Below, one piece after another: positions 18,538 to 41,785 of a stretch of DNA of 64,000 nt. The position numbers were made by a program, and so were the translations under genes. Numbering within the stretch: position 1 is the stretch's first letter; the number at the start of each line of letters is the position of its first letter. The DNA is from Shigella phage CM8. The stretch is from the sequence record MK962750. One strand, written 5' to 3'. A model generated the notes under the pieces. That model was not told where the DNA came from. It made no database searches and was given only the letters and a program-made list of their open reading frames with translations.

Positions 18538-19506
18538 TTATTTCAGAAGAGTAACCTCAGCGATTTCTTCCCAACCGTTTTTGTCGGTCATAATAAAGTC
18601 AGCAAGATAAAGAGCAGTACGCAGTGAAACATTGCGTAAACGATTAACATTGACTTTCATCCATGATAATGCTTTATAAGTTTCTTCATCAGAAAGACCG
18701 CGCTTTTGCATCATGTCAGTTGAAAGAATAACATCTTCAACCCTGACCATAATTTCTTCATTAGTGTGAACACCCAAATCTAAATAAACTGAGCGGGACA
18801 CTAATGCTTGTAAATGTGGAGCAAGTTTAGTACCACGGTCTAATTCGCGGTCAATATCAACGTTTGTGATAAAAACAATCGTTCCTTTAAATTCAAACTC
18901 ACGCTCAATGCCTTTTTCTTCTAAGTAAGAAGATGCAGTGCTCCAGCAGACTTTACGGGTCTCTCCGGTGTCCAGAGCAGCTTTCAGAAGATTAAGAATG
19001 TCCATATCAGAGAAAACATCCACATCATCAATCAAAAGGACAGAATTCTCTTCACGATTATTCCAAAGCTGTTCATAAAGACCGATACCAGAGATTTTAC
19101 CATTAATGCTTTTATACTCAATGTATCCAATATCATTTGCTTTATTTAAAGCTTTATCTAAAGAATACGTTTTACCAATACCTGCTGCTCCCGAGATAAT
19201 TAATGAACGAATGTTTCCGTTAATAATACCATTCGTCATCATTCCCATAACATTAAATCTTTTATTAATGCGGGTTTTCATATCTTCATACGATTCTTTA
19301 ACTTCTTCAACTTTTACACCATCATATGAAATGTCTGATTTGTAAACCCAAACACCGCGACGTTTACCGTCAATTTCAACAAAAACTTTACCATCTCCTT
19401 GTGCATCTACCGGAGCATTATCTGGGAACCATTCGCCTAAGAGCTCAAAAGTTCCAGAGATTTCTTTACCGAAGTAGATACCCTTATTGATAGTTACAGT
19501 TTTCAT
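18538..19506 (-). CDS. P-loop NTPase (AAA-like ATPase), function unknown
   Basis: Walker A GAAGIGKTYS and Walker B-like VLLIDDVD; ORF track starts at GTG, ATG at 19504-19506 after GGAGAA preferred. Confidence 0.6.
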   Translation of the reverse strand: MKTVTINKGIYFGKEISGTFELLGEWFPDNAPVDAQGDGKVFVEIDGKRRGVWVYKSDISYDGVKVEEVKESYEDMKTRINKRFNVMGMMTNGIINGNIRSLIISGAAGIGKTYSLDKALNKANDIGYIEYKSINGKISGIGLYEQLWNNREENSVLLIDDVDVFSDMDILNLLKAALDTGETRKVCWSTASSYLEEKGIEREFEFKGTIVFITNVDIDRELDRGTKLAPHLQALVSRSVYLDLGVHTNEEIMVRVEDVILSTDMMQKRGLSDEETYKALSWMKVNVNRLRNVSLRTALYLADFIMTDKNGWEEIAEVTLLK

Positions 19507-19534
19507 TTTGTTCTCCAATTTCACATTTGTTTTG

Positions 19535-19575
19535 ATAGGGTAATAATATCACACTACTACCCTGCTGTAAACAAT
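19535..19575 (-). promoter_or_regulatory. Early-promoter-like module upstream of the ATPase gene
   Basis: tgtaaac at 19566-19572 on plus (GTTTACA on minus) with gatagggtaataatatcac -10 region. Confidence 0.5.
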
Positions 19576-19839
19576 TTATTTTAATGTTTGCCAAATTTTT
19601 ACTGCTTCACGACGAGATACTTCTACAGCTCCAAGTTCTACAGCTTTTTGGCGTCGCCGAGCGTGTAAGTCATAATGTTTAATGCGTTTATCTTGAAACC
19701 AAGAACGTTTCATTCCTATTGCTTCTGCCATTTCATGAAGCTCTTCAATATCTCCATCAGTGAACATATGACAATTTTTAGTTGGATGACCGCGAAGTTT
19801 CCATCCATGATTCATTAAAACATCTACGTAAACTGTCAT
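19576..19839 (-). CDS. Hypothetical small protein
   Basis: 87-aa ORF with ATG start overlapping the upstream stop. Confidence 0.45.
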   Translation of the reverse strand: MTVYVDVLMNHGWKLRGHPTKNCHMFTDGDIEELHEMAEAIGMKRSWFQDKRIKHYDLHARRRQKAVELGAVEVSRREAVKIWQTLK

Positions 19840-19985
19840 TGATTCTTCTCCAAATAAGTTTCGATAATTTTCTGAGCGAGATAAACTGCATTATCTTCAG
19901 TTGCATCTTCTAAGAAACTTTCAAAACACTCTGAAATTTCTTCTGTGTCAATCAACTTTTTTACTTCAATTGGTGTAATTTTCAT
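19836..19985 (-). CDS. Hypothetical small protein
   Basis: ORF-track N-terminus is translated promoter; ATG at 19983-19985 gives MKITPIEVKKLIDTEE... (49 aa). Confidence 0.4.
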   Translation of the reverse strand: MKITPIEVKKLIDTEEISECFESFLEDATEDNAVYLAQKIIETYLEKNQ

Positions 19986-20014
19986 TTTGTTTTTCCGTTT
20001 AAGTGTTTGTTTTG

Positions 20015-20055
20015 ATAGTTGTATAGTACCATAAAGCTTTATGCTTGTAAACAAT
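20015..20055 (-). promoter_or_regulatory. Early-promoter-like module
   Basis: tgtaaac at 20046-20052 and gtatagtacc at 20021-20030 on plus. Confidence 0.5.
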
Positions 20056-20082
20056 TTTGTGAAAAATTTTTGAAATAAAAAA

Positions 20083-20100
20083 GGGAGCCCGAAGGCTCCC
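20083..20100 (-). terminator. Intrinsic terminator (gggagcc-cgaa-ggctccc plus T-run on the minus strand)
   Basis: Minus-strand RNA reads gggagccuucgggcuccc followed by uuuuuuauuuc, immediately after the stop of the 20103 gene. Confidence 0.6.
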
Positions 20101-20102
20101 TA

Positions 20103-21113
20103 TCATTTATAATAACTTCGGTGGTTTTCAAGATAAACCCTCTCAAGGAAGTCATCCCAAAAACCCATGTCTACTTTTTGCTGCATACCGTTCTTAGAAG
20201 CTTCAGTAGATGCTGCTTCTACTTGATCGACCACATCTTCCAAAAACTCTTGAACCGTTTTAAATGGATGTTTACCCAACTTCACGTCGAGAATAAATGG
20301 AGCATCTTGGAGTGGATAAACCAAGTCACCAGTTTTGTAAATTTCCAATAGTTGGAGTCCACCACGGCAAGCATGACTCATAGCTTTCCAGTCAATACCT
20401 TCATTGGCTTCGGCCTTACGAGCACGTTCACCGTATTCAGCATCTAATTTGTTCAGTGACTGCTTAAGCTCAATAAGAGAAAGCGTTGTCTGATATTTAC
20501 GACCCAACACTGTGTAAAACGTCTGTGGGCCTGTTTTCTCATGATTATGGAACACCCATTCACAGAATTCGTTTTCTGGAAGACGATGCTTAATATCTTC
20601 AACTTTAGTACGACGCTGCTTAATGGAACCGTCTTCTTGGTAATCAACCCATTGCTCAGGGATTTGATTAACTACTTTCAATACATCGCGTAATGCAGCC
20701 AAACGAGAACCCTTAACGCCGTATTTAGAAGCTTGCTTACGGACATATCCTAAATAGGATTTCATGTTAGTCGTATAAAAACGAGAACGGTTGTCTTGAA
20801 TAAACTTCCACACATCAGGCAAATCAGATTTAACCACTAACTCAGGTGGAGTGTGAAGCATATCTAACGCTACAGTTTCACCATCTGCTGCTAATTTAAA
20901 GAAATATTTAAGACTATACAATTCGTGGTCAATATCATCTTTAGTGTTTTTAGATGATGTGTTGTTAGTGTTTTTACTCATATGCTCTTTAACATTTCCG
21001 ATAAGAATATCGCGAGCAGGAGGAACAAAAATTTCTTTAAAATCTACATCAGATTCTGGAGTAGAAGTTCCATAAAGATGACTACCAAAATAAGACTTAA
21101 CTACAGTTTTCAT
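20103..21113 (-). CDS. Predicted nucleotidyltransferase-fold protein (pol-beta-like minimal NTase motif)
   Basis: N-terminal GSHLYGTSTPESDVDFKEIFV fits the GS-x(9-13)-DxD NTase signature. Start ambiguous (ATGs at 21137, 21128, 21113); overlaps the 3' end of the HNH gene. Confidence 0.5.
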   Translation of the reverse strand: MKTVVKSYFGSHLYGTSTPESDVDFKEIFVPPARDILIGNVKEHMSKNTNNTSSKNTKDDIDHELYSLKYFFKLAADGETVALDMLHTPPELVVKSDLPDVWKFIQDNRSRFYTTNMKSYLGYVRKQASKYGVKGSRLAALRDVLKVVNQIPEQWVDYQEDGSIKQRRTKVEDIKHRLPENEFCEWVFHNHEKTGPQTFYTVLGRKYQTTLSLIELKQSLNKLDAEYGERARKAEANEGIDWKAMSHACRGGLQLLEIYKTGDLVYPLQDAPFILDVKLGKHPFKTVQEFLEDVVDQVEAASTEASKNGMQQKVDMGFWDDFLERVYLENHRSYYK

Positions 21114-21876
21114 TATTAGACCTTTCATAATCTTCATTAAATTGTACAATCAATCGATGATAATTAGATTTTGGATATCCTAATTTACTTATATAAGTTC
21201 CGAATGACCCACGTTTAGGTCTATTTAATTTAATCCATAACTTATAAAGTAAGTCATAGTCTTGCCAATGTTTACCAGTTCTTTGTCTAATTTTAGATGA
21301 ATTTGATTGTTTCTTTTTAGTTTCAAAATTATTCAAAGATTTTTTGACTGCAGCAGAGTGTTTTTCTTTAACTCCCGGTCGTTTAAAAGCAGCTTTCACC
21401 CCTTTAGATATTTTTTCTTTAACTTCCGGTTTGTTTTGTGCTTCTAACTGGGATTCTGAAATTTTAGCCCTTATTTCAGGAAGACTTAATGTTATCGAAC
21501 GTTTTTCTCTGTATTCATTAGACTTCCACATTTCTTTCATTGTATTAGAATGTATTTTTGAAAATTTTTCTCTAACTAACTGATATCCTCTTGAAGTTAA
21601 TTTGAGATTTCTTCCTAAAGAATCTTCTCCAAAATTATAAAATGACCACCATGCATAAATTAATCCAGGCGAATTATAATGAATTTTAGCTAAAAGCCAA
21701 TGGGCTATAAAATGCTCTCTAGCTGTTAATAAAACTAGATTATCAGAATCATCATTACCACCAATACAAGATGGAATAATATGATGCTTTTCCGTATAAA
21801 AATTTAATTTAGATTTATCTAATTTTCTGAGTTTTCCTTTCTTAATTAAATTATTATATACTTTAGTATAATTCAT
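21097..21876 (-). CDS. mobD: HNH homing endonuclease, MobD-like by position
   Basis: 259 aa; ATG start; HNH motif EKHHIIPSCIGGNDDSDNLVLLTAREHFIAHWLLAK; repeated basic KEK-type motifs in the C-terminal half. Confidence 0.65.
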   Translation of the reverse strand: MNYTKVYNNLIKKGKLRKLDKSKLNFYTEKHHIIPSCIGGNDDSDNLVLLTAREHFIAHWLLAKIHYNSPGLIYAWWSFYNFGEDSLGRNLKLTSRGYQLVREKFSKIHSNTMKEMWKSNEYREKRSITLSLPEIRAKISESQLEAQNKPEVKEKISKGVKAAFKRPGVKEKHSAAVKKSLNNFETKKKQSNSSKIRQRTGKHWQDYDLLYKLWIKLNRPKRGSFGTYISKLGYPKSNYHRLIVQFNEDYERSNNENCS

Positions 21877-39066: not shown

Positions 39067-39127
39067 TTTATTCTCCTCAGTAGCTGATAGGGTAATAGTA
39101 TCACTACTAAAACCCAATGTAAACAAT

Positions 39128-39352
39128 TTATTCAACGCCAGCGGCTTTCAAAAGTTTCTTAAGATTGGCAACACCTTGAGCAGAAAATGTGACCTTGCCA
39201 CCTTTTTCACTGATAGAACCAACCAATTTAGCAAGTTTATCATTAGGAATTTTTTTAAAATCAGCCAATGTTCCATCAAAGGTTTTTGAAACAAAAGGCA
39301 GTTCGTCTTCGCGTCTTTTAGCTTCTACAATAAATTCTTGATATGTTTTCAT
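39128..39352 (-). CDS. Internal (capsid-targeted) protein A with T4-type leader MKTYQEFIVEA
   Basis: ATG at 39350-39352 gives MKTYQEFIVEAKRREDELPF... (74 aa); leader matches the T4 internal-protein capsid-targeting sequence as recalled. Confidence 0.65.
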   Translation of the reverse strand: MKTYQEFIVEAKRREDELPFVSKTFDGTLADFKKIPNDKLAKLVGSISEKGGKVTFSAQGVANLKKLLKAAGVE

Positions 39353-39385
39353 TTTAGTTTCCATTTGAGTGTTTGTTTTGATAGG

Positions 39386-39418
39386 GTAATAGTATCACTA
39401 CTAAAACCCAATGTAAAC
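39386..39418 (-). promoter_or_regulatory. Early-promoter-like module (repeated before each gene of the internal-protein locus)
   Basis: tgtaaac at 39412-39418 and gtaatagtatcac at 39386-39398; near-identical copies near 39090-39125, 39745-39790, 40070-40120, 40360-40392, 40720-40765 and 41045-41095. Confidence 0.5.
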
Positions 39419-39436
39419 AACTTTGTGAAAAATTTA

Positions 39437-39724
39437 TTACAAAAGATTTTTAGCAATAATCTTGAGATGTGCCGCAGAAATGTGTTTAGCTTTAAACAAC
39501 GCAGTTTCTTCAGCAGGAGAGATAACGATTGTAGCACCATCCTTTTTAGCAGACCACCCATCGCCTAGGTAAACAGTACCTTTGATTTCTTCGCCATCAA
39601 CCAGACTAATCATTGGTTTACCTTCTCGTCCTTTATTTGCTTTAATAACTTCAGAAGTAAGAGTAGCTTCGGTAATAGTAGAAACCGGGGTAGTTGTAGA
39701 AGTAAATTCTTTGAAAGTTTTCAT
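39437..39724 (-). CDS. Internal (capsid-targeted) protein B, copy 1 (leader MKTFKEF)
   Basis: 95 aa, MKTFKEFTSTTTPVSTITEATLTSE...; ITE motifs fit prohead-protease sites; differs from copy 2 only in the last ~9 residues. Confidence 0.6.
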   Translation of the reverse strand: MKTFKEFTSTTTPVSTITEATLTSEVIKANKGREGKPMISLVDGEEIKGTVYLGDGWSAKKDGATIVISPAEETALFKAKHISAAHLKIIAKNLL

Positions 39725-39796
39725 TTTATTTTCCTAATTAATTTTGATAGGGTAATAGTATCACAACTAAAACCCTATGTAAACAACTTTGTGAAA

Positions 39797-40054
39797 TTAT
39801 TTTAAATCTTCTAATCGTTTCTTCATCTTAGAACCGTTCTTAGCGATTTCGCCTGCATCAGAGCATAATGCTAAAAGCGCTTTAACTTTAGTTTGGTCTC
39901 CTTTAAAAGATGAAGGATCAACAGCAGCAGCAAGTTCTTTAATACGAGAGAAAAGACGCTCAGCTTCAGCTAAAGCCATTCCAAGCTTTACTTCCATACC
40001 GCGGGAAGATTCAGTAATAGTAGTTTTTGTAGCAAACTCTTTGAAAGTTTTCAT
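39797..40054 (-). CDS. Internal (capsid-targeted) protein C, copy 1 (leader MKTFKEF)
   Basis: 85 aa, MKTFKEFATKTTITESSRGME...; identical to 40771-41028. Confidence 0.6.
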   Translation of the reverse strand: MKTFKEFATKTTITESSRGMEVKLGMALAEAERLFSRIKELAAAVDPSSFKGDQTKVKALLALCSDAGEIAKNGSKMKKRLEDLK

Positions 40055-40126
40055 TTTATTTTCCTAATTAATTTTGATGAGGTAATAGTATCACTACCTC
40101 ATCAGTATGTAAACAACTTTGTGAAA

Positions 40127-40698
<572 letters not shown>

Positions 40699-40770
40699 TT
40701 TATTTTCCTAATTAATTTTGATAGGGTAATAGTATCACAACTAAAACCCTATGTAAACAACTTTGTGAAA

Positions 40771-41028
40771 TTATTTTAAATCTTCTAATCGTTTCTTCAT
40801 CTTAGAACCGTTCTTAGCGATTTCGCCTGCATCAGAGCATAATGCTAAAAGCGCTTTAACTTTAGTTTGGTCTCCTTTAAAAGATGAAGGATCAACAGCA
40901 GCAGCAAGTTCTTTAATACGAGAGAAAAGACGCTCAGCTTCAGCTAAAGCCATTCCAAGCTTTACTTCCATACCGCGGGAAGATTCAGTAATAGTAGTTT
41001 TTGTAGCAAACTCTTTGAAAGTTTTCAT
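40771..41028 (-). CDS. Internal (capsid-targeted) protein C, copy 2
   Basis: 85 aa, identical to 39797-40054. Confidence 0.6.
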   Translation of the reverse strand: MKTFKEFATKTTITESSRGMEVKLGMALAEAERLFSRIKELAAAVDPSSFKGDQTKVKALLALCSDAGEIAKNGSKMKKRLEDLK

Positions 41029-41100
41029 TTTATTTTCCTAATTAATTTTGATGAGGTAATAGTATCACTACCTCATCAGTATGTAAACAACTTTGTGAAA

Positions 41101-41785
<685 letters not shown>

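Follow-up and report, generated by a model that had tools for sequence, protein, structure and literature searches.

A divergent RlaP-type nucleotidyltransferase gene, a two-gene cassette and an AAA+ ATPase gene in the nrdC–mobD early region of Shigella phage CM8

In the classical tRNA repair pathway of phage T4, the kinase/phosphatase PseT and RNA ligase 1 (RnlA) counter the anticodon nuclease PrrC, and these two enzymes suffice. Here we describe a 2.6-kb stretch of the genome of Shigella phage CM8 (sequence record MK962750, of which one strand of 64,000 nt, the window, was analyzed) in which nrdC.11, a gene for a nucleotidyltransferase (NTase) that may act in the same pathway, is followed by two small open reading frames (ORFs) and by the ATPase gene nrdC.10. 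The initial annotation of this DNA, made from its letters alone, had suggested that the NTase and the ATPase could form one counter-defense or nucleic-acid-modifying module, with the hedge that they may simply be conserved T4-family ORFs. Our analysis favors a different reading, to which we assign a probability of roughly 60%, namely that the stretch consists of three independent pieces of the hyperplastic nrdC–mobD early region and not of one system. These would be a divergent RlaP-family NTase, a mobile cassette of two small genes inserted between the two large ones, and an ATPase that does not depend on the NTase.

The closest described relatives of NrdC.11 are the RlaP proteins (PF10127, previously COG3541), a family of Pol-beta nucleotidyltransferases that associate with RNA ligases (Burroughs & Aravind 2016, as cited in PMC12776372; Carruthers, Fatma & Huang 2025). 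The two Pseudomonas enzymes studied extend an RNA 3'-OH by one or two nucleoside monophosphates (NMPs), prefer Mn2+ and damaged-tRNA mimics, and do not use DNA as a substrate; Pseudomonas RlaP also rescues the aminoacylation of tRNA missing one anticodon-loop nucleotide, and its authors propose the family as an antidote to 'smart' ribotoxins such as RloC (PMC12776372). In the PfRlaP crystal structure, an N-terminal NTase domain is followed by a C-terminal helical domain, with the terminal helix packed back on the NTase domain, and the same preprint places T4 NrdC.11 in cluster 5 of the RlaP similarity network (PMC12776372). A comparative study of jumbo phages arrived at the same RlaP prediction and found that the distribution of RlaP mirrors that of RNA ligases (PMC7824862). 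NrdC.11 of the window shares with this family the catalytic motif set and, judged by its structural model, appears to share the architecture of an NTase domain and a C-terminal helical domain, and some of its cellular relatives lie near RNA-repair genes. It differs from the Pseudomonas proteins in being approximately 70–80 residues longer, in belonging to the cluster 5 branch, and in having no adjacent ligase gene in T4-like phages.

A second point of comparison is HalB, the NTase of the Hailong defense system that makes oligodeoxyadenylate (PDB 9dbh/9dbj). HalB is the best solved-structure match to the NTase domain of NrdC.11, with the DxD motif at the same position, but it is a 217-residue protein of 13–17% identity without the large helical domain, encoded in a two-gene defense operon with an ion channel, and the resemblance extends no further than the fold superfamily. 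For the site itself, the nearest counterpart is the hyperplastic region of T4-like phages, a variable early-gene cluster between conserved cores; the gap between nrdC.11 and nrdC.10 behaves alike, which makes it an ordinary pattern. Both large genes are themselves ordinary and were annotated already, nrdC.10 as an AAA-like ATPase and nrdC.11 as a COG3541 nucleotidyltransferase, in a 2006 comparison of six T4-like genomes that found nrdC.10 in three of the six and listed six nrdC.11 orthologues in its Table 2 (PMC1524935). The hedge was thus right, and we attach little weight to the locus as a discovery: its two large genes stand in the T4 catalog, their domains were assigned in 2006, and the biochemistry of the NTase family, published in 2025, names T4 NrdC.11.

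Gene order, transcription signals and the inserted cassette

The window is a Tequatrovirus (T2/T4-type) genome. Over 2.8 kb around the four ORFs it is 97–98% identical to hundreds of sequenced phages, and RB51, RB68 and others are colinear with its first 25 kb. The four-ORF region maps to T4 nrdC.10 and nrdC.11. In T4, the order at the same place is mobD – nrdC.11 – nrdC.10 – nrdC.9, all on the minus strand (T4 annotation); in the window, nrdC.11 lies directly downstream of the homing-endonuclease gene mobD and is followed by a 49-aa (amino acid) ORF, a DUF4031 ORF and nrdC.10. All four ORFs and the motifs first read in them are present, on the minus strand, as are all features described below unless stated otherwise. 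Because homologues occur in hundreds of phage records (1571 for the NTase, 1311 for the ATPase and 335 for the DUF4031 protein), the ORFs are far beyond chance.

The transcription signals divide the stretch. The nrdC.11 gene (20103–21113, with its ATG at 21113 and its end at 20103) encodes a 336-aa RlaP-type (PF10127) Pol-beta-fold nucleotidyltransferase in agreement with the T4 annotation, a 348-aa version beginning at an upstream TTG, and its start overlaps the 3' end of mobD by 17 nt. The mobD gene, an HNH homing-endonuclease gene at 21097–21876, was identified by ORF reading, Pfam and comparison with T4, and has been described as a promoter-less cassette carried on upstream transcripts (PMC2988022). 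We searched the window for the T4 early-promoter pattern GTTTAC-N16-18-TAnnAT and found 18 copies where 0.87 would be expected, every one of them on the minus strand. Two of these lie in the four-ORF region, one ahead of the 49-aa ORF (20023–20052; GTTTACA ... TGGTACTAT), which would serve this ORF and the DUF4031 ORF, and one ahead of nrdC.10 (19543–19572; GTTTACA ... TGATATTAT); the pattern search found none ahead of the DUF4031 ORF or directly upstream of nrdC.11. The proposal that each gene has its own early promoter thus holds for the 49-aa ORF and the ATPase gene and fails for the other two. With the 3' end of mobD reaching over its start and no promoter match directly upstream, nrdC.11 must be read from upstream transcripts that cross mobD.

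Directly 3' of the nrdC.11 stop lies a GC-rich hairpin with a T-run (20101–20082), an intrinsic terminator with an 8-bp GC-rich stem, a UUCG loop and a U-run in the transcript. With a folding energy (dG) of −17.7 kcal/mol and z = −3.8, it bears out the strong terminator already noted at this point, and transcription of nrdC.11 would end there. Since the terminator follows nrdC.11 and the downstream genes restart from promoters of their own, the NTase gene is cut off from them. An Rfam L20-leader match over the same terminator (window 20067–20230) scored 27 bits against a cutoff of 58.7; we rejected this sub-threshold hit as most likely a chance match driven by the hairpin.

Between the terminator and the nrdC.10 promoter sit the two small genes. 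The first (19836–19985, ATG at 19985) encodes a 49-aa acidic protein (phrog_6888); a 72-aa version from a TTG would begin inside the promoter. Its stop overlaps the start of the second (ATGA), an 87-aa DUF4031 (PF13223) ORF at 19576–19839, which is predicted from this arrangement to be translationally coupled to it. The DUF4031 assignment is firm (77.3 bits against a cutoff of 25.6; E = 1.1e-21), and the family comprises 3255 clusters at 50% identity. Six residues are invariant in the family alignment (D6, C23, H24, W47, H55 and D57), and this D/C/H/W/H/D set suggests an active or metal-binding site. A PDB search returned no solved relative of DUF4031, and its multidomain relatives amounted to a single fusion, to DUF1643.

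The two small ORFs behave as a unit that comes and goes. T4 has a 114-nt spacer between nrdC.11 and nrdC.10, with no insert and no DUF4031 ORF, and the gap of phage ACG-C40 contains both small ORFs together with a ModB-like ADP-ribosyltransferase. The pair is nearly always found together and in fixed order, the DUF4031 ORF being detected alone in locus L075, and is located either in the nrdC.11–nrdC.10 gap or 2–3 kb downstream of nrdC.10 (loci L051, L052, L062, L064, L066, L067, L074, L076 and L084). It occurs in just 335 phage records, which include unrelated Burkholderia and Ralstonia phages. The two ORFs are therefore probably a mobile accessory cassette: they have an early promoter to themselves, sit as an insert between the two large genes, and show an enzyme-like signature. 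More broadly, the gap measures anywhere between −58 and 2272 nt, and more than 20 unrelated small-ORF families occur in it; the nrdC.11–nrdC.10 gap is a hyperplastic insertion site. Among loci L054–L125, a predicted membrane protein of approximately 93 aa occupies the gap in 20 loci and others carry unrelated small ORFs, and L079 has 2.3 kb of inserted DNA there, with at least five ORFs.

NrdC.10 and its linkage to nrdC.11

The nrdC.10 gene (18538–19506; ATG at 19506, stop at 18538) is preceded by GGAG 8 nt upstream of its ATG and encodes a 322-aa AAA+ ATPase that is the ortholog of T4 NrdC.10 and has a 100% identical counterpart in many Tequatrovirus isolates. It contains a Walker A motif (GAAGIGKT, residues 106–113) and a Walker B motif (VLLIDDVD, 156–163), and K112, D160/D161, the sensor-1 residue N215, the arginine R238 of an SRS motif and the sensor-2 residue R296 are invariant in 28 orthologues down to 55% identity. 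The structural model (predicted local distance difference test score, pLDDT, 89) shows a five-stranded N-terminal beta domain (approximately residues 1–62), an AAA+ core and a helical lid. Its DSSP string hints at a possible pre-sensor-1 insert of the MCM/MoxR clade, a tentative reading on which we rest no claim. With Walker A and B, sensor-1, an arginine finger, sensor-2 and an alpha/beta core plus lid, NrdC.10 belongs to the AAA+ superfamily. Its place within the superfamily is another matter: it reaches the cutoff of no Pfam AAA family (AAA, AAA_14, AAA_22) and of no NCBIfam model, with clamp-loader, Hda/DnaA, MoxR and MCM models not reached, shows no clearly best structural match to a specific AAA+ family, and among the PHROGs is assigned solely to PHROG 1250, which has no known function. 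Judged by its sequence, NrdC.10 is a complete, stand-alone AAA+ ATPase that cannot be typed further. We propose that, expressed from its own early promoter, it is probably an oligomeric ATP-driven remodeler whose variable N-terminal domain probably selects the substrate.

NrdC.10 is strongly conserved and reaches well beyond the T4-like phages. The protein is 55–60% identical between Escherichia and Aeromonas phages, and homologues are found in Ackermannviridae (phiA8-29), in a Roseobacter siphophage and in jumbo phages of 280–370 kb, where the N-terminal domain is missing or replaced. In locus L026 a helix-turn-helix that scores below the Pfam thresholds replaces the N-terminal beta domain, and in the proteins of approximately 500–545 aa of L039–L049 an N-terminal region of approximately 300 aa takes its place. 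In sipho-, Ackermann- and jumbo phages, the distant homologues are surrounded by genes of replication and nucleotide metabolism, a context that would point loosely to DNA replication or metabolism; clustering of the neighbors around 34 of them yielded no conserved partner and no NTase nearby.

These contexts lend themselves to a more specific alternative, in which NrdC.10 acts as an accessory factor of replication and resembles either a clamp loader or an AAA+ initiator/loader. Some records annotate it as a 'putative processivity clamp loader', PHROG clamp-loader families match at 1e-4, the SRS motif and a 'SLRTA' sensor-2 resemble RFC boxes VII and VIII, and the distant homologues have polymerase, exonuclease, topoisomerase and nrd genes around them, with the N-terminal helix-turn-helix mentioned above present in one homologue. 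However, all Pfam and NCBIfam scores are under their cutoffs and no neighbor is conserved, T4 is already equipped with a clamp loader (gp44/62) and a helicase loader (gp59), and knock-down of nrdC.10 is without fitness effect in T4 (PMC11879866 supplement). We consider a replication role unlikely, and favor the looser description of NrdC.10 as a remodeler.

The alternative raised by the initial annotation is that NTase and ATPase, perhaps joined by the small ORFs, are one counter-defense, nucleotide-signaling or toxin–antitoxin-like module. In its favor, the two genes are adjacent, co-oriented and both early in Tequatrovirus; the ATPase gene lies downstream of RlaP in 35 of 78 IMG/VR RlaP loci, including those of Acinetobacter phages at approximately 51–54% identity; and anti-defense genes occur in the wider nrdC cluster, where nrdC.1 inhibits Septu (bioRxiv 10.1101/2025.11.20.689424). 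Against it stand, first, the terminator and separate promoters between the genes and the hyperplastic gap described above. Second, Aeromonas-type phages and KVP40 do not keep the two genes linked. A 173.6-kb Aeromonas-type contig (638275429) has both, more than 90 kb apart (L017 versus L106), another contig has them approximately 30 kb apart (L018 versus L107), and in KVP40 the NrdC.11 homologue lies near dda and natV. In the remaining 43 of the 78 RlaP loci there is no ATPase within 10 kb, some close relatives (82% identity) being among them. Conversely, RlaP lies within 10 kb of 9 of 43 ATPase loci in IMG/VR, all nine sharing 66% identity or more with the ATPase of the window.

Third, the association disappears with distance and the distributions diverge. 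When one genome of each prokaryotic species was scanned, 80 full-length cellular NrdC.11-type genes were found (31–53% identity; 72 with a callable ORF), and none of the 80 has an NrdC.10-type ATPase nearby, nor is RlaP found near any of the 34 distant NrdC.10-type genes. Counts of tblastn records per phage genus label, which are marginal totals and not per-genome co-occurrence, give for NrdC.11, RnlA and NrdC.10, respectively, 641, 639 and 558 in Escherichia; 295, 287 and 149 in Klebsiella; 81, 81 and 74 in Shigella; 75, 77 and 48 in Aeromonas; 69, 69 and 72 in Acinetobacter; and 56, 56 and 36 in Enterobacter. NrdC.11 counts are thus near-identical to those of RnlA and ATPase counts are not, and in Vibrio the ATPase outnumbers the NTase (121 versus 59). 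Finally, PADLOC gave no match for any of the four proteins, MntA scored 13.1 bits against a cutoff of 60, and known defense, toxin–antitoxin and signaling NTase systems (the CD-NTase of cyclic-oligonucleotide-based antiphage signaling systems, MNT/HEPN, AbiE and Hailong) provided neither a model match nor a conserved partner context for the four proteins.

From the gap, distance and distribution data, we therefore interpret the adjacency of nrdC.11 and nrdC.10 as synteny inherited within part of the family across a hyperplastic site, and not as operon-like coupling. A joint module is highly improbable; the two large genes are in essence ubiquitous T4 ORFs without co-variation, which is the very outcome that had been named beforehand as speaking against it. 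The label of a nucleic-acid-modifying or counter-defense function is fair for the NTase on its own, a catalytically intact RlaP member of a family linked to RNA repair, and does not extend to the pair.

NrdC.11 and RNA repair

NrdC.11 of the window is the ortholog of T4 NrdC.11 and is 99% identical to the T2 protein. It matches Pfam RlaP (PF10127) with 44.7 bits (gathering cutoff 23; E = 1.8e-11), albeit over profile positions 19–142 of 249 only, and PHROG 388 'nucleotidyltransferase'. The NTase signature reads G10-S11 ... S21-D22-V23-D24-F25. In an alignment of 64 homologues down to 23% identity, G10, S11, S21, D22 and D24 are invariant (64/64), and D60, D62 and E64 are near-invariant, D62 being Asp in 61 and Glu in three homologues and E64 being kept in 59 of the 64. 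Profile–profile alignment with hhalign recovers canonical RlaP, represented by the second RlaPs of the cellular loci described below, at 94% probability (E = 1.4e-7, N-terminal 125 columns) and aligns D62 with the invariant Asp of canonical RlaP, so the catalytic set of a Pol-beta NTase (GS, DxD and a third acidic residue) is intact. The C-terminal half carries basic residues that are invariant or nearly so (K134, R137, R230, K243, H247, R250 and K278).

The AlphaFold2 model (pLDDT 88) comprises a minimal Pol-beta NTase domain, a large helical domain and a long C-terminal helix (residues 316–335). A Foldseek search of this model against the PDB gave no match at E ≤ 0.001, and the best PDB folds were all Pol-beta NTases (HalB, 3c18, KNTase and LinB); neither sequence nor profile queries with the NTase, ATPase and DUF4031 families gave a significant PDB match.

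Taken with the Pseudomonas enzymes, these features point to NrdC.11 as a divergent RlaP-family template-independent nucleotidyltransferase. By analogy with Pseudomonas RlaP, from which both the activity and the in vivo role are drawn, it would bind two metal ions at D22, D24 and D62 and transfer one or two NMPs from nucleoside triphosphates to the 3'-OH of broken RNA. Its main target may be tRNA 5' halves after nucleotide excision by an RloC-type host anticodon nuclease, whereupon the polynucleotide kinase PseT and RnlA could reseal a full-length tRNA. The T4 tRNA repair pathway is thus the presumed working context of NrdC.11, in keeping with the near-equal genus counts of NrdC.11 and RnlA, and the enzyme would be a putative third step that is required only when nucleotides have been removed, as in RloC-type damage. 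NrdC.11 is a credible putative third component of T4 tRNA repair and may answer RloC-type nucleases that defeat PseT/RnlA.

Gene neighborhoods in cells are in part consistent with this assignment. Pnkp, Hen1, RtcB or Ro60/TROVE genes lie within 3.5 kb in 14 of the 72 cellular NrdC.11-type loci, and a second, canonical RlaP (255 bits to PF10127) lies beside the NrdC.11-type gene in 18 of the 72. Among cellular loci L132–L207, both RlaP types are sometimes found together with Pnkp/Hen1 or RtcB/Ro60. In Rheinheimera phage Barba19A, the NrdC.11 homologue adjoins a gene for a CCA-adding enzyme.

Several points weigh against our reading. NrdC.11 aligns with canonical RlaP over its N-terminal ~130 residues only, the C-terminal halves do not align, and by these alignments the protein is a divergent branch of the family. 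Repair-gene neighbors are limited to the 14 cellular loci, and the presence of both RlaP types in cellular operons suggests that they are non-redundant and possibly differ in activity, such that the exact reaction of NrdC.11 may differ from that of canonical RlaP. The match between NrdC.11 and RnlA counts could merely reflect shared ancestry within Straboviridae. No RNA-repair gene adjoins nrdC.11 in the window or in the T4-like phages examined, pseT and rnlA being approximately 80 kb from nrdC.11 in T4, and the neighbors of phage RlaP genes without the ATPase are NAD (nicotinamide adenine dinucleotide)-salvage, DksA-like, methyltransferase and mobD.x genes, with no repair genes among them. 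Lastly, 35 of 78 loci keep the gene order, as a loose functional link to the ATPase would allow, although synteny by descent is the simpler explanation.

In loci L095–L128 and KVP40 (L003), from Aeromonas-, Vibrio- and Klebsiella-type T4-like phages, the NrdC.11 homologue has no adjacent ATPase and often lies a few kilobases from NAD-salvage genes. From sequence reading and the KVP40 annotation, we take the latter to encode a NatV-like nicotinamide mononucleotide adenylyltransferase–Nudix protein and a NadV-like phosphoribosyltransferase.

Published phenotypes fit conditional, host-dependent roles. In the T4 CRISPRi-ART screen both nrdC.10 and nrdC.11 were scored 'Not Fit', that is, without fitness effect in the laboratory host (PMC11879866 supplement), and the stretch from nrdC.11 to mobD.3 can be deleted (PMC9825161). 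In a transposon screen whose main text makes no mention of nrdC.10 or nrdC.11, the nearby nrdC.1 emerged as an inhibitor of Septu and pseT proved important in clinical isolates (bioRxiv 10.1101/2025.11.20.689424).

The resemblance to HalB raises the alternative that NrdC.11 is not an RNA-repair enzyme but an oligonucleotide or signal synthase of the HalB/CD-NTase kind, for instance one whose oligo-dA product keeps the DNA-gated channel of a Hailong-type system closed, or an NTase directed against the host that blocks tRNA in the manner of MenT/AbiEii. However, the structural match is weak (13–17% identity over ~125 residues, template modeling score 0.25–0.4) and typical of any minimal Pol-beta NTase; Pfam assigns RlaP and not other NTase families, and PADLOC gives no match; and the cellular homologues lie beside RNA ligases, Hen1 and Ro60, with phage counts that track RnlA. 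We regard this alternative as highly improbable. Least probable of all is the variant in which NrdC.11-type enzymes are HalB-related template-independent oligonucleotide synthases and the phage copy makes a decoy inhibitory oligonucleotide that holds a DNA- or oligonucleotide-gated host effector off, which, if true, would be counter-defense by signal synthesis instead of signal destruction.

A duplicated early-gene cluster elsewhere in the window

A separate set of minus-strand genes at window positions 39324–41559 contains a tandem duplication of approximately 974 bp (39366–39665 versus 40340–40639, 97% identical) and a 123-nt promoter-containing unit in five copies, and seven near-identical early promoters lie within 39095–41088. 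The small early genes of this cluster begin with MKTFKEF or MKTYQEF, which, from reading the sequences, we take to be internal-protein-like capsid-targeting leaders. The cluster also includes a 152-aa 2H-phosphoesterase-like ORF with HxT/S motifs (41559–41101), presumably Acb1/57B-like on the same kind of reading, and a truncated 81-aa duplicate of it at 40372–40127.

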